From IMG/VR virus record IMGVR_UViG_2923339551_000001: 37,127 nt of DNA. One strand, 5' to 3'. The DNA comes from a virus (lineage: Duplodnaviria; Heunggongvirae; Uroviricota; Caudoviricetes). This document shows, one piece after another, positions 1,254-29,111 of the stretch. Within the stretch, counting starts at the first letter, position 1. Every line of letters starts with the position of its first letter. The notes beneath the pieces are model-generated. The model searched no databases, had not been told where the DNA came from, and saw only the letters and a program-made list of their open reading frames with translations. A program made the position numbers and the translations under genes.

Positions 1254-2147
1254 CTATTTCCAGTTACAAGCATCTTGAAGCGGTTTTAGTGCATTTGACA
1301 GGCCGCTTAAATTGAAAGTTGCACTTACAGGGCTTTCATTATAAGGGGTTATTTTTGTGTACATTTTATGTGAGTTGGCAAGTTTTCTTATGAAATCAAT
1401 ATCATTACCTTTATAAAAAACAGCCTTTGTATCTGTAGATATTAGCCAGTTTCTTTCAACTGCTTTCTGTTTATCAAGACGATACAGCATGCTGGTTTGT
1501 TCAAGGCCTAAATATACATCCCAACTAAGAAATACTTCGGTTTTCTTTTCTCGGCAAGCTATAAACAGAGTGGGAGTAACAGCTTCTCCAAATGGAGTTC
1601 TGATATAATCATCACTTTCTAACGATAAAATTATATTTTTCGAATCATCAATTGGCGATGTAGTAATGGACGTGTGCCATTTTCCTGCATCTGTGGCTTT
1701 CTCTAATTGTGATTCAGATTGAACAGCTTCATCCTGTGGGAATAGTTTATCGTAGCAGTTTAGTCTGGCTTCTTTATCATTTTCTGCTCGGCATTTAGAT
1801 ATTTCAGAAAGATTTGGTTGCTGAGCCTTTGTTGTTACTAGCTTTTCCGTTTTAGATTTTGAGTTTACAGATGGAGTAAATGTTGGAGAAAAAAAACGAT
1901 CATAACAAGATAAACGTTTGTCATCATCTTTCTCATCAGGGCATTGATCCCTGCTTTCAAATTTTTCAGCAACTTTCGTTCGAGTCGGTTGTATTGACTT
2001 ATCGTAACAAGAAAGTCTGTCTTTATTGTTTTCTATCGCTCGGCACTGGAGCACTGCATTGAAATTCTTATGTTCAGTTGCTGCATGAACAGGCAGTACA
2101 CTAATTGATATAAATAATGCACCTATAGAAAAAATCATATTTTTCAT
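1254..2147 (-). CDS. Hypothetical secreted protein with three Cys-containing repeats
   Basis: 297-aa ORF, AT-rich; N-terminal signal-peptide-like segment (MKNMIFSIGALFISISVLPVHA); three repeats of C-x8-9-RLxCYD(K/R)xF; family not recognised. Confidence 0.6.
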   Translation of the reverse strand: MKNMIFSIGALFISISVLPVHAATEHKNFNAVLQCRAIENNKDRLSCYDKSIQPTRTKVAEKFESRDQCPDEKDDDKRLSCYDRFFSPTFTPSVNSKSKTEKLVTTKAQQPNLSEISKCRAENDKEARLNCYDKLFPQDEAVQSESQLEKATDAGKWHTSITTSPIDDSKNIILSLESDDYIRTPFGEAVTPTLFIACREKKTEVFLSWDVYLGLEQTSMLYRLDKQKAVERNWLISTDTKAVFYKGNDIDFIRKLANSHKMYTKITPYNESPVSATFNLSGLSNALKPLQDACNWK

Positions 2148-2151
2148 TTTA

Positions 2152-2484
2152 TTATCCCTTTGGTTTAGTAAGAAATACTAAAATTCCGATAATGATATCG
2201 CCAATAACCCATAAGCCTCCAATGACAATTAAACCTAAGCCCGTACCAATAACTGCCCCAGCTTTTTCGGCATCGGATGTGGTATTGTTTATTATTTCAT
2301 CAGCGCCTCCTAGTCCAACTAAAAGTGTATAGATCATAAAAATATTAAAAAATATAAAAGTCCATTTAATGAGTTTTCCAAAAAATGAACGCTTAAGTTT
2401 TTTCAGTTGTTTACCACAAGCAGGGCAACATAATGCTGAATCGCTTACCTCTTTCTGGCATTCAGGACATTTGATTAATGTCAT
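2152..2484 (-). CDS. Hypothetical zinc-ribbon membrane protein
   Basis: 110-aa ORF; N-terminal CPEC-x10-CCPAC zinc-ribbon motif followed by two hydrophobic helices; 4 nt upstream of the secreted-protein gene, likely one operon. Confidence 0.6.
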   Translation of the reverse strand: MTLIKCPECQKEVSDSALCCPACGKQLKKLKRSFFGKLIKWTFIFFNIFMIYTLLVGLGGADEIINNTTSDAEKAGAVIGTGLGLIVIGGLWVIGDIIIGILVFLTKPKG

Positions 2485-2683
2485 GTAATCCGTCTCCTTT
2501 GGAACACTACAAGCTGAAATTTGTTACAAAACATTTTGATTTTATCAGATTTTTTGTTGTTGATAAGTGCCAATTGATTAACTGGTTTAGAGTGATACAT
2601 ATAGAAAGGTAGAGCAGTGTCAGTGTGTGATGAAATACCCACAGTTTCATGGGATTTTTGCATTTAGAGCTGTGAGATAGGGT

Positions 2684-2790
2684 AATGTAGTTCAGTTAAG
2701 GAATTGAGGTTCGATAGCTCGAACCTCGCGCAGAGGCAAGATGACTGAAAGCCTGATTCCTTAATGCACAAAAATGAGTCTCTATTCATA
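2684..2790. repeat. Left terminal inverted repeat of the cassette
   Basis: Reverse-complements to 4056-4166 at roughly 93-95% identity (hand alignment); contains nested internal palindromes ttaaggaat/attccttaa and gaggttcga-tagc-tcgaacctc. Confidence 0.6.
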
Positions 2791-2996
2791 GAAGTGTATT
2801 AACTAATCGACATCGCCTGTTGTGTGGATTGCCCCCATAAACACGGGCTTTCTGCTTGTTTAGTAGTCACAGTATGTCTAAGCTTTCTCGTTAGCTTCTT
2901 CTGAAATGACCTGCACTACAAGCCCGCGCTTCCCATACACCACATGCAGTGCAAACTGACGCATCGGTTTTTCAATCAGCTAACTAAAAGTTTGGC

Positions 2997-3830
2997 TCAC
3001 CAAACGATGCGCCCATCTGATGTATGTCCTTTGGCTTGTTTTACTATACTGAAATCTACTATTCCATATGGATAAATTTTATTTACTTTAAACACAAGAT
3101 TAGCAACTAAATGCATTCTCGATTTAACTGTTTCTGTGCGCAAAGCGATATTTGAGGCCCCTTTTATTTTAGCGCTAGGATAAATGAGACCATCAACATC
3201 AGGGTATTTATCAAGAAGAAGACGGCAAAAAATTCTTGAGTAAATATAATTTACCTCATGGGCATTGATACTATTAAGCAACTCAGCAGAAAGGGCATCC
3301 ATATACAAATATGATAGCAAAGCACGGATGTCGTCCTTACCAATTCTGCTAATGATGCCACGAATTTCATTAAACACTTCAATTGAAATTGTATTTACAC
3401 CGTGATACACATTAAAGACCTCACCGATAGCAAAACATCGCATTCCAGACTCTGAATTTTCCGGCATCTTAAAGTGAGCTATGTGAACATAATCCCCTTC
3501 TTTTGCATTAATTTCGGCTAAAGCTGTTCCGATACTATAAGCGCCATAGAAGATAGCTTGTCCATCATCATTCATTCGGCCTATTTTACATTTTTCTGGT
3601 GGAGGGGGATATATTTCACTGATGTTATTATATCCGCATTCATTTGGGCACTTTCGCGCTCTAAAAATTGGTCTGTCATAACCGAACTTGAAATTAACAC
3701 CGCCATATGATTGAAGATACCATCTAAGTAATCTCTCTACTTTCTCTGGCTTTATAGTAGTTAGTAATTCTTTACGAAACAGATCAAGACTATTTAACTC
3801 AATTACCTTTAGCTTATTATTCATGACCAT
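2997..3830 (-). CDS. RES-domain protein (putative NAD+-targeting toxin), no adjacent antitoxin gene
   Basis: 277-aa ORF, AT-rich; motifs FRAR, GRMNDDGQAIFYGAYSIGTALAEI and GLIYPSAKIKGASNIAL match the Arg/Glu/Ser signature regions of the RES family as I recall them; no Xre-like partner ORF in the cassette. Confidence 0.55.
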   Translation of the reverse strand: MVMNNKLKVIELNSLDLFRKELLTTIKPEKVERLLRWYLQSYGGVNFKFGYDRPIFRARKCPNECGYNNISEIYPPPPEKCKIGRMNDDGQAIFYGAYSIGTALAEINAKEGDYVHIAHFKMPENSESGMRCFAIGEVFNVYHGVNTISIEVFNEIRGIISRIGKDDIRALLSYLYMDALSAELLNSINAHEVNYIYSRIFCRLLLDKYPDVDGLIYPSAKIKGASNIALRTETVKSRMHLVANLVFKVNKIYPYGIVDFSIVKQAKGHTSDGRIVW

Positions 3831-4055
3831 CCCTATAATTTTAGAGTTTCGTTATTCACTTTACACTTCATGCTGACCAGTTACCGCCACTGAGTCTACT
3901 GCACAGGCTAACAATTTATGGTTATTTTTCAATGTACAAGTACAAAAAATCAAGGCGTTCTAGAACTAGAAGTCGTCAGTTGACCGCGAAAGGTAAGAGG
4001 CGGCATTCAGACAATGCGGGGGATACACCGCCAATGTCGAGTAGTTAAGCGCTTT

Positions 4056-4166
4056 TATGAATAGAGACTCATCTTGGGCATTAAGGAATCAGGCTTTCGG
4101 TCATCTTGCCTCTGCGCGAGGTTCGGGCTATCGAACCTCAATTCCTTAACTAACTGAACGGCATTG
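4056..4166. repeat. Right terminal inverted repeat of the cassette
   Basis: Reverse complement matches 2684-2790; followed by the 12-bp direct repeat. Confidence 0.6.
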
Positions 4167-4239
4167 GTGAGATAGGGTGCCTTATCGACCTTACCCTGGC
4201 AACCGATTGACGGGGGATTGCTCCCCCGTCGCGGTTTCC

Positions 4240-4380
4240 TTACTGCTTACACTGTAAGAACGCCGCAAACTCCGCTCCCCAGAAGCTCATCCGTATTTCG
4301 CACAGCGAACCGTGCAGCATCCAGATGATGAGGATTGCCGTCACGCAGAACGTGATGGCCGTAAGCGATTTTTGCGACAT
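4240..4380 (-). CDS. hok: Hok/Gef-family type I toxin (small membrane peptide)
   Basis: 46-aa ORF not in the track (under 60 aa); hand translation MSQKSLTAITFCVTAILIIWMLHGSLCEIRMSFWGAEFAAFLQCKQ; SLCEIR and E-x-AAF motifs and the TM segment fit Hok/Gef; AAGGAG Shine-Dalgarno 8 nt upstream. Confidence 0.6.
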   Translation of the reverse strand: MSQKSLTAITFCVTAILIIWMLHGSLCEIRMSFWGAEFAAFLQCKQ

Positions 4381-4570
4381 AGCGCTTGCTCCTTTTTCAG
4401 GGAGGCGCTAACCTATCACTTGCTAAGGTTAGACGGTTAGGGCCTCGGTTAAACAGAAATGTTTTCCGGGGCCTTTCCACATCTGGCCTTCGGGTATTCC
4501 CTCCGACCATCAGCCGAAAGGCACCCGCGCGTAATCTATCGCTTTTTTGTTACTCCGGCAATTCTGCCTG

Positions 4571-4831
4571 TTAATTCTGAGATAAAGGCAAACTCATCTG
4601 ATTGTTTCCCCTGTGTGAAGCTGGCAACTCATGCCACGGGATACCTTCTGAAGAGTGAACGCCGGGGGCGTGTTTCGATGTGAATTTATGGAAAGCTTCC
4701 AGTGTTGAGAAACTTATGCCGCATTCCAGGTTGTTACACTGGTAATATTTTTTCCGTACGGTGTTTGAATCATTTTCCGAACGACTGGTGCGGATACGGG
4801 CAGATGCGCCACAAAGCGGACAACGGAACAT
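4571..4831 (-). CDS. ogr: Ogr/Delta-family zinc-finger late transcription activator
   Basis: 86-aa ORF; CPLC-x19-CNNLEC zinc finger and N-terminal similarity to P2 Ogr; position next to D. Confidence 0.8.
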   Translation of the reverse strand: MFRCPLCGASARIRTSRSENDSNTVRKKYYQCNNLECGISFSTLEAFHKFTSKHAPGVHSSEGIPWHELPASHRGNNQMSLPLSQN

Positions 4832-4873: not shown

Positions 4874-5983
4874 TCACTCTGTTTCTGCTATCCATTCCGG
4901 GATTTTTGCTTCAAGCTCAAGCTGCGTGGTAAAGCCACTGTTATCAATGGTGTGCTCGGCTTTCGCAATAATCCAGTCCTGATTATCAATCTCGCTTTTA
5001 AATCCTGTTACCGTGCCATGCATTTCGGGGTAGAGTTCTGCGCGTCCACGAGCCAGTGTGATGGAGAATGATGCGGCTCCGCGTTGTAGCTGCTGCCACT
5101 TTGCCGCCGCTGCGCGTCTTGCTGCCAGCTCGTTCTGATAAGTCTTGCGTAACACAAACACATTGCCATCCGCGCCTTCCATATAGTCACCTTCACGGCT
5201 GCTGCTTTTCTCCTTTTTGGGTTTTGGCGGTTTACGGCGTTTCACGCTGACTTTTTTCTTTTTCCCGTAATTAAGATCAAGCCAGTAGGCGCGTACCCCC
5301 GTATACGCCTCGCGGTCAGCAATACGGAATTGATGGCGATCGCCGCTGCTGCGTGTAATGGCGAACGAGGGCAACGGCTGGCCCTGTGCGTTCACGCCAC
5401 CACCTGGCATGATGAATAACAGATTACCGCTTTTTACCGTGGTGATTGCGCCCAGCATTTCCGCCATGCGCGTAAGGAAAGACATGTCGCTTTCTTCGGT
5501 CTGGTCGGCGTGGTCGATTTCGATATCCATCAGCATTTCGCTGATTTGCGGTTTCAGGCCGTACCGATGAGCGATGGCGGATACCACGCGCTCAACGGTC
5601 ACATCATGCCAGGATACTTCACGTTTAACGTTAAATTCATCCCGAAAATCTGCGCTTCTGGCTGAAACAGTCAGCCTGTCCGGCGGTCCTTCGTGAGCGA
5701 TTTCATCAACAATGTAAGTGCCTTTTTCTGTCAGCGGTTCTCCTTTCCAGCCAATGAGAACCGTCAGGCGCGCGCCCCGTGGCGGTAGCTGCAACTGACC
5801 ATCCGCATCATCCAGCGTGATGGTGAGCTGGTCCGCTTCAAATCCCCGGTTGTCGGTCAGTGACAGGTTCATCAGGCGCTCTGCCACGCCGGACAGCGTT
5901 TTACCCTCCGCGAAAATATCCAAATCCGGCATTTTCACGGGGTCTGTGCCCTGACTGAGCAATTGCATGGTGGTATCGGTCAT
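4874..5983 (-). CDS. D: Tail protein D (late control gene D family)
   Basis: Track ORF 4874-6115; I place the start at the internal ATG at 5983 (MTDTTMQLLSQG) because of a GGGAGGG Shine-Dalgarno 6 nt upstream; gpD-like sequence throughout. Confidence 0.8.
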   Translation of the reverse strand: MTDTTMQLLSQGTDPVKMPDLDIFAEGKTLSGVAERLMNLSLTDNRGFEADQLTITLDDADGQLQLPPRGARLTVLIGWKGEPLTEKGTYIVDEIAHEGPPDRLTVSARSADFRDEFNVKREVSWHDVTVERVVSAIAHRYGLKPQISEMLMDIEIDHADQTEESDMSFLTRMAEMLGAITTVKSGNLLFIMPGGGVNAQGQPLPSFAITRSSGDRHQFRIADREAYTGVRAYWLDLNYGKKKKVSVKRRKPPKPKKEKSSSREGDYMEGADGNVFVLRKTYQNELAARRAAAAKWQQLQRGAASFSITLARGRAELYPEMHGTVTGFKSEIDNQDWIIAKAEHTIDNSGFTTQLELEAKIPEWIAETE

Positions 5984-6140
5984 CTGTTCCCTCCCTGTGC
6001 GGCATGGTCGCATGTGCGTGCGGAAGGGGTTACTGCTTTTTGTTGTCGCCGAATCGGGAGAACGGCGCAGGGGTGAGATTACGCGCGTGGTGGGTGATGA
6101 TTGTTGCCGAATCATTTAACGGATACAAGGGGCTGAAGCT
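5984..6140. promoter_or_regulatory. Divergent intergenic region between D and FI (putative late promoters)
   Basis: 157 bp between divergent starts; contains direct repeats TTGT(C/T)GCCGAATC at about 6042 and 6098; no clean TGT-N12-ACA late-promoter motif identified by eye. Confidence 0.3.
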
Positions 6141-7325
6141 ATGAGTGAAACTCGTTTTCATGGTGCCCGTGTTACGGAAAATACCGACCTGGTAACAGCG
6201 ATTAACGATGTTGATTCCAGCGTTATCGGTATCGTGGCAACGGCGGATGATGCGGACGCGAAGCTGTTCCCGCTGAACAAGCCCACACTGCTGACCCGCG
6301 TCAATGACGTGCTGGGAAAATGCGGAACAACGGGGACGCTTTATCGTGCGCTTAAGGCCATCGCAGACCAGGTGAGCACAAAGGTGATCGTCGTTCGCGT
6401 GGCTGAACACAAAGAAGAAGACGGAAAGACGCAGGATCAACTGGTTATCGGTGGTTCTGAGGATGACGGCAGCTATACGGGGATGTATGCGCTGCTTGTT
6501 GCAGAGCAGGATGAAAGCATCGGATACCGTCCGCGTATTCTGGCCGCGCCGGAGCTGGACACGGAGGCGGTAACGAAATCCCTGTGCGTGATTGCAGGTA
6601 AACTGCGCGCGTTTGTGTATGCCTCATGTCACGGCTGTAACACGATGGCTGAGGCGATTACCTACCGCCAGAAATTCAACGAACGTGAGGTGATGCTCTT
6701 ATGGCCGGACTTCATCGCCTACAACCCGAAAAGTGGCAAAAACGAAACGTTCCCCGCGCCTGCCTATGCGTGCGGCCTTCGTGCGTACATTGACCATGAA
6801 CAGGGATGGCACAAATCACTGTCCAACGTTCCGGTTAAAAATGTGCTGGGGATGTCGAGGCATGTGTTCTGGTCGTTGCAGGCCGAAGACAGCGATGCCA
6901 ACAGCCTCAACAACAAAGAAATCACGACCATTATTCGTCGTAACGGGTTCCGCTTCTGGGGTAACCGCACACCGGAAACGAACGCCTACATCTTTGAGGT
7001 GTATACCCGAACCGCACAGGTGCTGGCTGATTCAATTGCGGAAGCGCAGTTTGAAACCATCGACAGTCCACTGACGCCTGCGAACGTGAAGGATGTTATC
7101 AGTGCCATCAGAGCAAAACTGGATTCGCTGGTTACTGCCGGGAAACTGATTGGCGCGGAGTGCTGGTATGACGTGGTGGATAACGGCACCACGGATTTAC
7201 GTCAGGGGCGTGTGCGTATTCGCTACAAATATACGCCCGTTCCCCCGCTGGAAGACATGGAGCTTTACCAGACGTTTACTGATGAATTCTTTGGTCCCGC
7301 ATTTGCGGTGCTGGGAGGTGCCTGA
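6141..7325 (+). CDS. FI: Tail sheath protein FI
   Basis: 394 aa; clear similarity to P2 gpFI (for example ADDADAKLFPLNKP...GTTGTLYRALKAI); ATG at 6141 verified. Confidence 0.9.
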   Translation: MSETRFHGARVTENTDLVTAINDVDSSVIGIVATADDADAKLFPLNKPTLLTRVNDVLGKCGTTGTLYRALKAIADQVSTKVIVVRVAEHKEEDGKTQDQLVIGGSEDDGSYTGMYALLVAEQDESIGYRPRILAAPELDTEAVTKSLCVIAGKLRAFVYASCHGCNTMAEAITYRQKFNEREVMLLWPDFIAYNPKSGKNETFPAPAYACGLRAYIDHEQGWHKSLSNVPVKNVLGMSRHVFWSLQAEDSDANSLNNKEITTIIRRNGFRFWGNRTPETNAYIFEVYTRTAQVLADSIAEAQFETIDSPLTPANVKDVISAIRAKLDSLVTAGKLIGAECWYDVVDNGTTDLRQGRVRIRYKYTPVPPLEDMELYQTFTDEFFGPAFAVLGGA

Positions 7326-11886: not shown

Positions 11887-12450
11887 ATGCTGAATAATAG
11901 AGATATGAATATTAATGAACTTAAAGACTGTATTCACTATGAAGTAATCGGTAGCGAGCGTCCTTTCTCCTGGCGAAAGGCAATTGTTCGCGCAATAAAA
12001 CATAGAAGAGTTCGTTATTTATTTTGGTGGCGCATAGCCAAATACCTTTTTGATAAAGGCGGATACTGTCGGAAGATTGCGGGGAAAATAGAACGTTTCA
12101 TTCTTGATAAATATAATGTAACAGTCCCTTTAACTGTAAATATAGGGAAAGGCTTTGATATTTCTTATCTCAACAGTGTTGTTATCGGTCACAAAGTAAC
12201 CATCGGTGAAAATTGTTCAATAAAACCAGGGGTAACTATTGGGCTACGTGGTGATTTTAATGATATGGATATTGTTATAGGACATAATGTGACCATTGGT
12301 TGTAATGCCACCATTCTTGGTGGCAAAGTGCGTATAGGAAACAATGTCACAATAGGTGCTCATGCATTGGTATTGCATGATATTCCTGATGATTCAACAT
12401 TCATCACTAAATTTCAGTCTGAAGTTATCTGCTCGTCCTCCCGCACATAA
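11887..12450 (+). CDS. Hexapeptide-repeat (left-handed beta-helix) acetyltransferase, WcaB/CysE-like; cargo gene at the G/FI (Z/fun) hotspot
   Basis: 187 aa, AT-rich; repeated [LIV]GxxxxIG hexapeptide motifs ([55 protein letters not shown]); 3' end overlaps the 3' end of G by about 37 nt. Confidence 0.7.
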
Positions 12451-13031
12451 CCCTGATTCATCAGCTCTGGCCATACGATATCCGGAGCTGTACTGGTGTC
12501 AATTCGACTCACTAATACTCTGTATTTTCTCCAGGAATCCAGTTGTGAAGTTTCCTCGTTTGTTGCTATTTCAAGATTAACTGCATCCTGCAGAATTGCG
12601 ATGTTATCTGTTGCCTCCTGGATCAACCTTGCCTTTTTCTCTTCCGCTTCCCGTATACGAAACAGTTTTTCTGCCTCCTCATCCTTCACCCAGGATACGC
12701 CGTCCCACTTCTGATACTCCCCTGCTGGCGACAACCAGGTGACATTCCCGGGTAGCGGGCCGGGTTCAGAAATGAACAACGCGTCCCCCGATGCCACGTC
12801 ATAGACCGTTTTACCACGATGGTCTTCAACAATATTCCACGACTCATTTTCACTGTTAAAAACTGCCACAAAGCCAGCCGGAATATCCGGTGGGGCGATA
12901 TCTGTAGAATTAGCTGGCAGCCCTGTATGAGCTGGAATATATGCGTCACCTTCACCAATAAACTCATTAGTTCCGGCCAGCAGGTTATAAATTTTTACAG
13001 TACGTGATTGTTCACTCATTCTGAATGCCAT
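12414..13031 (-). CDS. G: Tail fiber assembly protein G
   Basis: 205 aa directly downstream of the tail fiber gene; Tfa-like sequence. Confidence 0.8.
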
Positions 13032-15031
13032 TATGCAAGCCTCACAATATAATTAAATGCGATGTTTTTAACGGTGTTTTCCGTGTTACCAGTAGCGTTA
13101 ACAGTGATGGTGTGTCCATGTGAACCAATCGCAACGGAGTGTGTATGAGCGCCAATACCAACTGTATGTGCATGCGCCCCTGCACTTGCAGCAGTGCCTG
13201 ATACTGAGTGGGTGTGTGCACCAGAAGAAGGCACTGTTCCATTCCCCACGACCGTGCCACTTGATGCACCATCAAGCCAGTCGAAATTCATACCTCCACT
13301 GTTTGGTCTCCTTAATGGAACGGTATGAGTATGTGCGCCAGCACTATTTGCAGTACCAGATACATTATGGGTATGTGCACCTGTGTTATTCGTTGATTTA
13401 GTACCGTAATCAAACGACGATGTGGTTTTCGTACCCAAATCCGTACTGGATGCGCTGGCACTGTGGGTGTGCGATTTAATGCCATCCTGTTCCTGAGACA
13501 ATACGGCTCGACCACTTGCGGGTTTGCCCTTGATTGTCCAGCCACGCATATCGGGGAGTACACCAGAGGGATAAGCTGCTGCAAGCAGGGGATAGGTTGT
13601 TTTATCAAAAGTCTGCCCCTGCATAACGGCATAACCTGTAGGCACTGAATCAGATGGCCACGGAATCGCCGCACCTACAGGAAATGAATCCTGCGGCGTC
13701 CATGGTGTCCAGCCCCCCGTTGAGGGCTGGCTGCGGGTATAGCTTCTGGATGTGTTATACACATAGTAAATCTGTGTTATCCCGGCATTTTTAAGCACAA
13801 CCAGTGTACCCGCAAAATTCTCTGGGTATTTCAGCGCTGCACTTGTATTGGCATTCAGGGGCTGATGGTACAGCCCCGGCGTTTTGTAATTATCCAGATT
13901 CTGGTTTGCACCAATCTCAATACTCTGACCGTTAAAAATATCCTGTGATGTAACATTGACATCATTGGTCAGTGGTTTGCCATTAACCTTACGTCCAGAG
14001 GGCACACGCCCGTTTGCATTGTCATTAGCAGCTTTAACCGCTTTCGGGGTCGCGGCAAGCGTTTCAGACGTGCTGTTGGTTGCACTAGTAAGCTGGACTA
14101 TCCCTTTTTGTGCTGTTGTTGCATCCTGTGCGGTGTATTTGCCATTAGCAAGGTCATATGCTGCCTTTACCGCCTTTGGCGTTGCCGCCAGCGTTTCAGA
14201 ATCGCTGTTGGTGGCACTACTGAGCTGGACAAGACCTTTTCGCGCTGTGGTAGCGTCCTGTGCGGTATATTTCCCGTTAGCAAGGTCATTTACTGCCTTT
14301 ACTGCTTTTGGCGTTGCAGCCTGTGTTTCAGACACGCTGTTAGTGGCGCTACTGAGCTGAACAAGGCCTTTTCGCGTCGTGCTGGCATCCTGCGCAGTAT
14401 ATTTCCCGTTAGCAAGGTCATACGCGGCCTTTACTGCTTTCGGCGTTGCAGCCTGTGTTTCAGACACGCTGTTAGTGGCGCTGCTAAGTTGAACAAAGCC
14501 TTTTGCGGTCAGCGAGGCGTCCGGGTGACGTCGTGACTGTTCATGCTCTTTCAGTTTGTCATCCACGTAATCCACTGTGGCCATCACCATGGTGTTATCC
14601 ACGGTAAGCGCCACAGTGGCAGTGCTGGATACGGTCAGAATGGTGCGAAATGTTTGTGCACGCCCAGACCCTTCGGCAACGGTTGGCTTGTAACTTTCGG
14701 CAGTATTGCCCACCGCGATTAAATCGCCGTGCTCATCAAACACACCAATTTCCCGGATCCAGAATCCGCCCGTTTCAGGAGGAATAACCAGCTCTGCAAT
14801 AATGCGGTTCTGATGTGTTGCGTCCAGGATGATGCGATTAACAGTGTGTCGCCACACCTCATGAACCAGACGGGTCTGCTTACTGTCTGGTGTGGGCAAC
14901 GCGCCGCCACCGTCGCCCACGGCCATATGAGTCAGGCGGACAGGCTTACCATCTGGCGCGGCTGCCTGAGCTAATTTTTTTGCACCCGTATCGGTGATAA
15001 CGGTTTTAAATTTTCGTGTTGTGGTACTCAT
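13031..15031 (-). CDS. H: Tail fiber protein H
   Basis: 666 aa (P2 gpH is about 669); conserved N-terminus, four tandem ~41-aa repeats in the shaft, His-rich HxH-containing C-terminal tip. Confidence 0.85.
14000..14510. repeat. About four tandem ~120-bp coding repeats within tail fiber gene H
   Basis: DNA repeats visible by eye, encoding repeated KG(L/F)[39 protein letters not shown] units. Confidence 0.6.
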
Positions 15032-26767: not shown

Positions 26768-27298
26768 ATGAAGAAAGATTCATATCCTTATTTGATTTGC
26801 ATGACTGTTTCAGTGCTAGGGATTATTTTCCTCTTTTACTGGTGGAGGGCAGATATCTACAGGATTACATATCTTAATTCGCGTATATCCAATTATTACA
26901 TCTTGTGTAGTATGGGTATGTCCTTTTTCTTCTCCTTGTTTCTGGTGAAGAGGGGGGTAGTGAAGCAAAGTGGCTGGAAAGGACTGTCGGAATACCTGAA
27001 GGTTTATGCTGGCTCTTGCATTCTTACAGGGATATTCCTGATTATCCCTCTTATGATGGTGACTTATTTTTTACCAGGAGTAACATCATCATATGTTGCA
27101 CCGTATGAGTATACATCCGGTAGTTCAAGAAGCTGTTCCGGAGCGTTTGTTGATGATCCCGATCTGCATAAAAATATTCTTATTTGCTATCCGTATGGTA
27201 ACTATGAATATGACAATATTATCTATGTTGAAAAGAAAACTAATGCATTGGGCGTTGTTGTGACGTATGCACAGACTGCACGAGACGATGCTGAATAA
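26768..27298 (+). CDS. Hypothetical 3-TM membrane protein with Cys/Tyr-rich C-terminal domain; cargo at the P2 tin/old hotspot
   Basis: 176 aa, strongly AT-rich versus the phage backbone; three hydrophobic helices then a soluble tail; occupies the position and orientation of tin/old in P2. Confidence 0.65.
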   Translation: MKKDSYPYLICMTVSVLGIIFLFYWWRADIYRITYLNSRISNYYILCSMGMSFFFSLFLVKRGVVKQSGWKGLSEYLKVYAGSCILTGIFLIIPLMMVTYFLPGVTSSYVAPYEYTSGSSRSCSGAFVDDPDLHKNILICYPYGNYEYDNIIYVEKKTNALGVVVTYAQTARDDAE

Positions 27299-27388: not shown

Positions 27389-27772
27389 TTAGTCTTGTAG
27401 CTGCGCTGTCCTGCTATGCAGCAAAGCGGCGTACTTTAATGCGTCCTGTGCTTTCTGGAATTTAAGTGCATAGTCAGTGGCGATTTTTTCCAGTTCAGCG
27501 ATTCGGTTGTCTTTGGTTTCCAGCCAATCAAGTAGCGCCAATACTTCAGGATCCCCGACATCCAACACTGTTACGCGTGATTTTTCATAATGTTCGTCGG
27601 CAAGAGTTCGACCAATTTTGAAATCTCCATCATCACCATAACCGGAGCAGCCATAAACAACCTGTGCTCCAGATATTCGCTGAATTGACATTTCTTCGCC
27701 GCAAATAGGGCATTTTGGTACTGGTGCAGGTGAATAACGTTCACGTAATGCCTGATAGTTGATTTTGCTCAT
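27389..27772 (-). CDS. Zinc-ribbon protein (topoisomerase-type C4 zinc finger) with coiled-coil tail
   Basis: 127 aa; CPICG-x14-GCSGYG motif resembling the zf-C4_Topoisom ribbon; last gene of the A-parM-parR transcription direction. Confidence 0.6.
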   Translation of the reverse strand: MSKINYQALRERYSPAPVPKCPICGEEMSIQRISGAQVVYGCSGYGDDGDFKIGRTLADEHYEKSRVTVLDVGDPEVLALLDWLETKDNRIAELEKIATDYALKFQKAQDALKYAALLHSRTAQLQD

Positions 27773-28151: not shown

Positions 28152-29111
28152 TTACTCCTTGTCCATTGCGTACAGCCCATTAACCAGAGCAAACTGTGGC
28201 ACCCCGTCCGCGATGAAAGTCGCATTAACTCCGCAGGCTTCGCGGATAGCGGGTGCCACAATCTCCGCCCCGCCACCGACAACCATCACCCGCCCGTAAC
28301 CCGAAAAACCCGCCAGCGCGCGGATCACGCGTTGTTTCAGTGTTTCTTCCTTTTCACGAATAACCGCCATCAGGCTGGCGTAATGCGCGTCATTGTGGAT
28401 GTGCTGGCGCAGCCAGGCTTCATCATGGCGATGTTCGATAATGGTATTGGCGATGTGGTGACTGGTACGCATACCGTTAGTGGCCATCACCGACAGTACT
28501 GCATCGGCCATCAGGGAAACGCCTACGTGTGGATCGCAAAACACCTGGCTGATACCTGCCAGTTGTCCCTGAACCTTTGCCACATCCAGCGTGGTTCCAC
28601 CTAAATCCACAATCAGCAGGGATTCAAACGGACTCATGTCAGCCAGTGCTTTAAAGCCAGCCGGAATGGATTCAGGCATAACCCGTACATTACGGATAGT
28701 GAATGCTTCGCCGTTCTGGTATTCCACCGGGCGCATAACGTTTGCTTTTTTGCGGTTGATGTTGGCCATGTCCGGCTGTGCGTTTGTGTCGAAATACTCG
28801 CTCAGTGGCAGGGTGACAACCACATCCACCTCCTGTGGCGTGATGCCTGATTTGACCAGCGCGTGATGAATGGCAATGACATTCACATCGCTGTACTGGT
28901 ATTGCGTGTCGGTCGTCTGGACAAAGCGATCGCTGACCGGATCAAAACCATAGCGCACGCCATCAAGCATGTAGTTCGCGGGCTGCGTGCCACCGAACGG
29001 CGCAGACCATTCCGACTTGAAGCTGTTCGGGCTGATGGCGTTGCGGCGTTCGCCGTTCTCAGTCCATGCCAGCTTGATGTTGGTGGAGCCGTCGTCGATA
29101 CAAATTTTCAT
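28152..29111 (-). CDS. parM: ParM/StbA-like actin-family partition ATPase
   Basis: 319 aa; N-terminal MKICIDDGSTNIKLAW, LIVDLGGTTLDVA and VVGGGA motifs closely match plasmid R1 ParM as I recall it. Confidence 0.8.
   Translation of the reverse strand: MKICIDDGSTNIKLAWTENGERRNAISPNSFKSEWSAPFGGTQPANYMLDGVRYGFDPVSDRFVQTTDTQYQYSDVNVIAIHHALVKSGITPQEVDVVVTLPLSEYFDTNAQPDMANINRKKANVMRPVEYQNGEAFTIRNVRVMPESIPAGFKALADMSPFESLLIVDLGGTTLDVAKVQGQLAGISQVFCDPHVGVSLMADAVLSVMATNGMRTSHHIANTIIEHRHDEAWLRQHIHNDAHYASLMAVIREKEETLKQRVIRALAGFSGYGRVMVVGGGAEIVAPAIREACGVNATFIADGVPQFALVNGLYAMDKE

Follow-up and report, generated by a model that had tools for sequence, protein, structure and literature searches.

Three poorly understood protein families meet at the locus described here: TagO/VasI, DrpB, for which there are only multicopy and synthetic phenotypes, and IalB, for which there is no mechanism. 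The function of TagO/VasI is given as 'unknown' in a 2026 review of accessory factors of the T6SS, or type VI secretion system (PMC13584744). DrpB (YedR) is a septal-ring protein of Escherichia coli that acts in multicopy suppression of ftsEX, and on overproduction it induces both Psp and, via the periplasmic domain of RcsC, Rcs (PMC7648144, PMC11709261). Residue T89 of DrpB, located in its YTRPRP tail, is required for Rcs induction (PMC11709261). The stretch of DNA that we analyzed, referred to as the window, comprises 37,127 nucleotides of the IMG/VR virus record IMGVR_UViG_2923339551_000001 (Caudoviricetes). It is E. coli DNA, with flk followed by a P2-like prophage from position ~1100 to the window end. 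Our subject is a pair of genes at the flk-proximal end of this prophage, one for a 110-residue zinc-ribbon inner-membrane protein (ZnR, 2152-2484) and one for a 297-residue secreted protein of the VasI/TagO family (1254-2147); gene features of the window given below are on the minus strand unless stated otherwise. From sequence comparisons we strongly infer that the two proteins form one membrane-periplasm envelope complex. The explanation that we favor, at a probability of about 0.4, is that this complex, expressed from the prophage, protects the lysogen against incoming injection machines, either directly or via an envelope-stress response.

The VasI-like protein was assigned by its matches to Pfam VasI (PF11319; 90.8 bits against a cut-off of 26.5, with residues 118-296 aligned to profile positions 1-184) and to phrog_1848 (E = 3.5e-37), and its RefSeq name is TagO. 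The statement in the initial annotation that neither family of the pair was recognized is therefore superseded for this protein. It has in common with VasI/TagO proteins (PF11319, TIGR03360) a putative signal peptide, the C-x8-RLxCYD motif and a beta-rich C-terminal domain with a conserved cysteine pair ending in C-x-W, export being predicted from the sequence. The putative signal peptide (residues 1-22; 2082-2147), MKNMIFSIGALFISISVLPVHA followed by A, has the form of a Sec signal peptide in sequence and hydropathy, as had been proposed, with predicted cleavage after VHA; it contains no lipobox cysteine. Unlike canonical VasI, which has one copy of the motif, the phage protein has three. Exact matches to C-x8-RLxCYD[KR]x[FI] were found at residues 35, 69 and 119, so that the three cysteine repeats first described stand, whereas two details of their description do not: the spacing is always x8 and not 8-9, and the first copy ends in I and not F. 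Repeat 1 (residues 35-52, CRAIENNKDRLSCYDKSI; 1992-2045) falls in a helix-turn-helix at 29-51 in the AlphaFold2 (AF2) model, repeat 2 (residues 69-86, CPDEKDDDKRLSCYDRFF; 1890-1943) falls in helices at 66-85, and repeat 3 (residues 119-136, CRAENDKEARLNCYDKLF; 1740-1793) is located both by the regular-expression match and by the alignment of homologues. Repeat 3, the nearest to the C-terminal domain, is the copy common to single-repeat and canonical VasI proteins, and C119, R128, L129, C131 and D133 are invariant among 46 homologues. The repeats are not due to chance, for 91 of 93 homologues conserve the motif, in one to three copies.

Each repeat is modeled by AF2 as a helix-turn-helix with one cysteine per helix, and linkers of low confidence join the repeats. 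The C-terminal domain of about 150 residues, correctly anticipated in the initial annotation, is predicted as a beta-sandwich (residues ~150-297; 1257-1700) at a pLDDT (predicted local distance difference test) above 90 and contains the conserved Cys198/Cys294 pair. The mature protein has eight cysteines, distributed over the three hairpins and C198/C294, all of which can be paired; they probably pair as disulfides, one of them stapling each helical hairpin. This natural pairing fits a periplasmic protein. A sequence search of the PDB gave no significant match. The closest solved fold to the C-terminal domain is that of IalB (PF06776; PDB 3dtd), at 17% identity. IalB and the N-terminal domain of MotY, at 14-17% identity to this domain, are without the helical cysteine repeats of the VasI-like protein, with which it shares the fold; among viral models it occurs in uncharacterized proteins of temperate and T4-like phages. 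A host-interaction or virulence factor like Bartonella IalB, which would alter how the lysogen interacts with an animal host, could be proposed from this closest solved fold and from the human and animal origin of isolates that carry the pair. The similarity to IalB is one of fold only, with a Pfam IalB score of 19.4 bits against a cut-off of 22.1, the mechanism of IalB is itself unknown, and relatives of the pair are found in plant-associated and marine bacteria and their phages. We consider such a role the most improbable of those weighed here.

The family assignment and the RefSeq name TagO would also be compatible with a true T6SS accessory, the phage supplying a periplasmic component or regulator to the T6SS of its host. 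Against this, the TIGR03360 equivalog score is 78.9 bits for a cut-off of 124.2, the window (flk and the P2-like prophage) contains no T6SS genes, and the gene is located not in a T6SS cluster but in a P2-like phage, with a membrane partner. All close relatives that we examined lie likewise in P2-like prophages, at different att sites. The neighborhoods of 25 more distant relatives comprise 184 open reading frames (ORFs), and no T6SS family appeared among the 25 commonest Pfam families listed for each half of them, a sample in which rare matches could be hidden. Their neighbors include integrases, Abi, TIR, GmrSD, restriction-modification and housekeeping families. The prophage setting, the missed equivalog cut-off and the absence of T6SS families from these lists of neighbors led us to reject T6SS membership: the complex would not be a T6SS component, and we regard an accessory role as very unlikely, all the more as the function of TagO is itself listed as 'unknown'. 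The RefSeq label 'T6SS-associated protein TagO' is thus misleading for the phage copies.

The partner, ZnR, belongs to phrog_6586 (E = 5e-38) and gives a weak but recurrent match to the DrpB model, so that for this protein, too, a family can be named. The zinc ribbon and the two transmembrane (TM) helices described at the outset are both in evidence. The ribbon (residues 4-27; 2404-2475), predicted to be cytoplasmic, has the pattern CPEC-x9-CCPAC, matches to Pfam Zn_ribbon_3, Zn_Ribbon_1 and DZR that lie under the cut-off, and AF2 beta-strands at residues 3-5 and 12-14. The remainder (residues 28-110; 2155-2403) is hydrophobic and is modeled by AF2 as helices at 34-66 and 71-105; it was identified as a DrpB-like two-helix membrane hairpin with the NCBIfam DrpB model, with hhalign and by profile search. 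The topology was deduced from the positive-inside rule. The AF2 helices and the basic residues on both flanks point to the DrpB type, with two TM helices, both termini in the cytoplasm and a short periplasmic loop. The family is nearly always 110 residues long, with a mean column identity of 72% across genera, and it conserves the polar in-helix residues N47 and D96, the periplasmic loop SDAE(K/R)AGA and the C-terminal T(K/R)PK.

DrpB has the same two-TM hairpin with both ends in the cytoplasm, and shares with ZnR the motifs RS..GK..W.F, SD..AG and T(R/K)P(R/K). An hhalign comparison of ZnR with E. coli DrpB (E = 0.0012) aligned the same motifs and placed T89 of DrpB opposite T106 of ZnR, which is invariant in the family alignment. 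The DrpB model NF038392 scores ZnR at 18.5 bits against a cut-off of 50; it matches 20 of 24 family members, with a best E of 7e-7 and always fewer than 50 bits. When a profile of only the hairpin was run against 1.84 billion representatives, it retrieved 763 proteins at E <= 0.001, of which 256 were at E <= 1e-10, and only some had a zinc ribbon. Among the best 150 matches were 144 newly found representatives, 65 of which also touched the DrpB model. The differences from DrpB are the N-terminal zinc ribbon of ZnR, family scores (up to about E = 1e-7) that stay under the 50-bit cut-off, and the pairing or fusion of the ZnR-type hairpin with a VasI domain; we know of no VasI-type neighbor of DrpB. 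Taken as sequence relationships, the kinship of ZnR and DrpB appears real but distant, and DrpB would be a divergent branch of a larger hairpin family.

Three independent lines of evidence indicate that the two proteins belong together: conserved adjacency, an alternative partner of the same design, and gene fusion. First, the ZnR and VasI genes adjoin, with a 4-nucleotide (nt) or overlapping junction, across genera of the Enterobacterales, while the number of VasI repeats varies from one to three. Second, a variant E. coli VasI of other P2-like prophages (250 residues, two repeats) adjoins a gene for a zinc-ribbon protein with a TM2 hairpin (PF05154). The latter has the architecture of ZnR and the equivalent place beside the VasI gene, and the ZnR profile matches its zinc ribbon with a probability of 90.6%. 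Its membrane part belongs to another Pfam family, and its gene is convergent with that for VasI, whereas ZnR is co-directional. Third, nine unrelated proteins, found among the same 144 representatives, are fusions of the hairpin to a VasI domain. In these, the hairpin is followed by one or three further TM helices and then by the C-terminal VasI domain (local hidden Markov model E of 1e-40 to 8e-13); scans with Pfam and with TIGR03360 agree on the fusions, as does the database's own Pfam annotation for two of them. The extra TM helix of the fusions would stand in for the signal peptide, and the resulting geometry is that expected for the two-gene version. The nine fusions make it most likely that ZnR and the VasI-like protein act together.

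The idea that the RLxCYD hairpin serves as the docking element for ZnR is weakly supported. In its favor, all nine fusions lack the hairpin; against it, canonical VasI contains the hairpin although no membrane-hairpin partner of canonical VasI is known, and a Pasteurella phage homologue is without it. A connection between repeat number and type of partner was also considered and rejected, as the partner of two-repeat forms is ZnR in Brenneria and Pectobacterium and a TM2 protein in E. coli. In three viral contigs (L165, 3317-3625; L169, 5333-5680; L175, 1387-1602) a hairpin gene is followed by one for a small, secreted, cysteine-rich protein that is not VasI. These small proteins have a common motif, HC..(V/I)ASFGG, and may represent a second family of periplasmic partners. 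The hairpin genes with this other secreted partner, together with lone ZnR genes, indicate that the hairpin is the more general platform.

The pair is phage cargo. The initial annotation placed it, with the neighbors that the ORF list and family scans also give (flk, the RES gene and the prophage end), in an accessory islet beside the prophage, a location that is not borne out. Phage P88_4B11 has the same order, D-ogr-hok-[variable]-ZnR-VasI-attP-int, and the match to its attP region extends from the VasI-like stop through a hairpin at 1194-1235 to ~1098. The match to other E. coli chromosomes, in the flk-pdxB intergenic region, ends at 1119, where pdxB normally follows flk. The overlap of phage and chromosomal homology defines an approximate attR core of the prophage (1098-1119, without strand). 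As the P88_4B11 homology runs past the VasI-like stop to ~1098, we assign the module to phage DNA within the P2-like prophage, with 135 bp between it and the att core. The earlier suggestion of acquired cargo holds, in that these are accessory genes gained by horizontal transfer: they are AT-rich, they are absent from the flk-pdxB locus of most strains, where comparison of the flk neighborhood locates the end of chromosomal homology at 1119, and they occur in 239 of 5426 complete E. coli genomes (4.4%), mostly intact; they are not core genes of the species at this locus.

The order D-ogr-hok-[variable]-ZnR-VasI-att recurs in several phages, in which both proteins are 63-99% identical to those of the window. 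Carriers include Xuanwuvirus P88_4B11 (gp36 and gp37), Escherichia phages 500465-2 and PhiR44_2, Citrobacter phage Shae_phiSM, and Klebsiella phage 3LV2017 and its relatives; an ogr-adjoining pair is found in P2-like phages of Escherichia, Klebsiella, Citrobacter, Dickeya and Brenneria. Among the best 80 VasI-like loci in IMG/VR, ogr was present in 71 and a hairpin gene lay directly upstream on the same strand in 66. A preprint on phage hotspots describes a third such site in P2-like phages, between a tail gene and CI (10.1101/2024.10.15.618418), and this is the position of the ZnR-VasI pair. The location between ogr and attP/attR, the variability among related phages, the atypical composition and the possession of its own signals are those of a moron. 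The pair is thus one cargo operon ('moron') in the ogr-attP hotspot of P2-like temperate phages, transmitted with the phage.

This location bears on a further explanation, a lysis accessory, in which ZnR would be a holin- or antiholin-like protein and the secreted protein would tune the timing of lysis. Class II holins are small two-TM proteins with both termini in the cytoplasm and a charged C-terminus, a description that ZnR resembles, and the secreted partner is predicted to be periplasmic. The pair is at the att end, far from the phage late genes; it is AT-rich and variable among the P2-like phages, of which only a subset carry it; and its homologues occur as chromosomal fusions and lone genes. 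These facts make a lysis role improbable.

Several observations touch on the history of these genes. Nine E. coli plasmid copies of the pair were found, in a lineage that has a frameshift. In plasmid p120899_146 (8151-9061) and relatives at 90% identity the VasI gene is split by this frameshift, and the p120899_146 copy lies in a P2 remnant (ogr, hok and a truncated D). Many Pantoea genomes have, between cueR and copA, a ZnR gene on its own (6001-6333 in loci L017-L019), which is 69% identical and comes with the same promoter-like sequence. It may be what is left of an ancient prophage end; one Pantoea genome has a P2-like prophage integrated right beside the lone gene. In Pasteurella phage Pmp14 (L021, 1497-3420) a VasI-like gene without the RLxCYD motif ends a run of secreted- or membrane-looking ORFs that is placed after tail-assembly genes (tail tube and chaperone), and a 652-residue ORF then follows. 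In the GenBank record of Shae_phiSM (OR565851.1) the name tagO is on the zinc-ribbon gene, the true VasI-like gene is called hypothetical, and the label ogr is on a 1110-nt coding sequence.

The organization of the module is that of an operon. The two minus-strand ORFs, 1254-2147 (297 residues) and 2152-2484 (110 residues), are as first annotated, with a gap of 4 nt (TAAA) between the ZnR stop codon (TAA, 2152-2154) and the VasI-like start (ATG, 2145-2147). The module is indeed AT-rich, with a G+C content of 35.3% compared to 52.7% for flk and 53.1% for the prophage body. A conserved Shine-Dalgarno sequence, AGGAG (2494-2498), was read 9 nt 5' of the ZnR start, and AAGGGA lies within the final ZnR codons, ahead of the VasI-like start. 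A consensus scan gave a candidate sigma-70 promoter for the operon (2539-2566; TTATCA-16-TAAAAT with TG), a type of match no commoner than in shuffled sequence. The arrangement TT(A/G)TCA-spacer-TGATAAAAT, followed by TTTTGTAACAAAT, is kept 5' of ZnR in Escherichia, Klebsiella, Raoultella and Pantoea. The near-palindromic TTTTGTAACAAAT (2510-2535), located between the candidate -10 element and the ribosome-binding site and kept in the same four genera, is a possible operator. Inspection of the promoter region by eye for Fur, Cpx and Rcs boxes revealed none that was convincing. Beyond the operon, 19 nt past the VasI-like stop, an inverted-repeat scan located a hairpin of intrinsic-terminator form (1194-1235), with a perfect 19-bp stem, a 4-nt loop, a G+C-rich core and TTTTG after the stem on both strands. 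It is identical in P88_4B11 and was not among the predictions of a consensus terminator scan. Compared to the 95%-identical allele of phage 500465-2, dN/dS is 0.16 for the VasI-like gene and 0.20 for ZnR, which indicates that both genes are under purifying selection. The Klebsiella allele of the VasI-like gene was unusable for this purpose, as the sequences differ by indels and were compared without codon alignment.

Expression in lysogens is suggested by the conserved promoter-like site and by VasI-like genes in unrelated phages. In Brucella phage BiPBO1 and Klebsiella phage ST11-VIM1phi8.1 the VasI-like gene comes directly after the repressor gene, on the same strand, an arrangement expected for genes made in the lysogen. 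In the mechanism that we favor, ZnR would insert in the inner membrane with both termini inside, presenting its zinc ribbon to the cytoplasm and a short conserved loop to the periplasm. The VasI-like protein, exported by Sec, would consist of three helical hairpins on flexible linkers and an IalB-fold beta-sandwich, and would dock on the ZnR hairpin or work beside it. The complex, made in the lysogen, would alter the envelope for the benefit of the prophage. The likeliest effect would be a periplasm or inner membrane refractory to superinfecting phage, and possibly to tailocins or T6SS. This could come about by direct interference near the peptidoglycan and the division zone, or by switching on an envelope-stress response, for example Rcs, as DrpB does when overproduced. 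Protection of the lysogen is favored because of the hotspot location, the neighboring RES and hok genes, the repressor-linked relatives and the defense-rich neighborhoods of distant relatives.

Some of our findings weigh against protection of the lysogen. Neither protein had a match in PADLOC-DB 2.0 at E values up to 1. The scores for similarity to DrpB, of a type that membrane helices can inflate, are under the curated cut-offs; the promoter-like site is a consensus match, with its conservation; and H-NS often silences AT-rich cargo of E. coli. Two of the fusion proteins are in unremarkable chromosomal contexts, on short contigs that are uninformative, and ZnR is also encoded on its own in Haemophilus and, between cueR and copA, in Pantoea. 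These contexts and lone genes suggest that the ancestral role may be envelope housekeeping, not defense.

They lead to the main rival explanation, an envelope-fitness module. The pair would be a phage copy of a host accessory of envelope or division, comprising a DrpB-like hairpin and an IalB-like periplasmic adaptor, which would aid growth or division of the lysogen under envelope stress such as low osmolarity, with no anti-phage role. The kinship of ZnR with DrpB is in keeping with this explanation, as are the hairpin-VasI fusions and lone ZnR genes in ordinary chromosomal contexts, and in Sinorhizobium meliloti a periplasmic protein with an IalB domain, RgsG, is essential and is found at the growth pole (PMC7327166). 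It accounts less well for the presence of the pair in a phage accessory hotspot beside RES and hok, for the phage relatives that follow repressor genes, and for the same fold in lytic T4-like phages, which have no interest in long-term host fitness. We consider the fitness module possible though doubtful, and the T6SS, lysis and virulence roles less likely than it.

The remaining genes of the prophage complete the setting. From the ORF list and family matches, flk occupies 1-996, and the minus-strand order is gene D (4874-6115), ogr (4571-4831), hok with a sok-like RNA (4240-4526), the RES-domain gene (2997-3830), ZnR and the VasI-like gene; the rest of the prophage comprises genes for tail, head and replication, and at its far end are cox, C and a truncated integrase. 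The sok-like RNA scores 43.6 bits with Rfam RF01794, below the gathering score of 59. The hok gene between ogr and the cargo is kept in the E. coli members of the phage group and absent from the Klebsiella ones. The RES protein has 277 residues, with a Pfam match at E = 5e-12 and an N-terminal extension of 76 residues, and no ORF for an Xre-type antitoxin was seen beside its gene. The gene is inside a 1.5-kb element (2683-4166) with inverted-repeat arms of about 100 nt (2694-2794 and 4052-4151) and no transposase within it. An 11-nt direct repeat, GTGAGATAGGG, flanks the element at 2672-2682 and 4167-4177 and resembles a target duplication; in phages 500465-2 and Shae_phiSM the site is empty and contains a single 11-mer. 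P88_4B11 shares the ZnR-proximal arm and, in place of RES, has two other genes. The notion that the arm beside the module is a multicopy E. coli repeat was rejected, as it occurs in 65 genomes, once per genome. Elsewhere in the prophage, three tandem copies of a 132-nt unit (14009-14504; 75-80% identity over an overlapping 232-nt register) lie inside a large ORF (13031-15031), presumably the tail-fiber gene. Other probable cargo comprises a hexapeptide-repeat acyltransferase (11887-12450, plus strand), an ORF without a significant family match, its one Pfam match being far below the cut-off (26768-27298, plus strand), an Ead/Ea22-like protein (27389-27772) and a ParM-like actin (28152-29111); those of these ORFs that were compared with PADLOC models gave no match.

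Both protein families, both PHROGs and the RefSeq annotation of the genes are already known. We did not find described the coupling of hairpin and VasI as operon or fusion, the variant with triplicated helical hairpins, or the systematic ogr-att placement in P2-like phages, and a search of the literature on PF11319/TagO in P2-like phages, on Shae_phiSM and on TM2-domain exclusion returned nothing on the ZnR-VasI pair. What emerges is a periplasmic protein of the VasI/IalB fold that is persistently coupled, in operon or fusion, to a DrpB-like hairpin, the couple being spread by P2-like phages. As a speculative extension, the hairpin and the VasI/IalB-fold domain may constitute an undescribed two-part envelope system, an operon in phages and a fusion in bacteria, whose phage version would be a new exclusion or defense device at the level of the periplasm, or a phage-encoded trigger of Rcs. 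If true, this would be the first function assigned to the T6SS protein TagO/VasI and to the DrpB family. The pair also offers a small, tractable two-gene system of E. coli for asking what these families do.

The functional comparison closest to protection of the lysogen is with the superinfection-exclusion proteins of the envelope, among them Imm and Sp of T4, SieA of P22 (PMC10883804), gp15 of HK97 and Glo of Vibrio phage K139. We found no relationship of sequence or fold between any of these proteins and the pair. The likeness is in their nature and position: these exclusion proteins are small, belong to the membrane and/or the periplasm, and are encoded by dispensable cargo genes close to the immunity or att region, and the ZnR-VasI pair has a comparable setting in its accessory hotspot, its conserved promoter-like site and its predicted targeting to the envelope.

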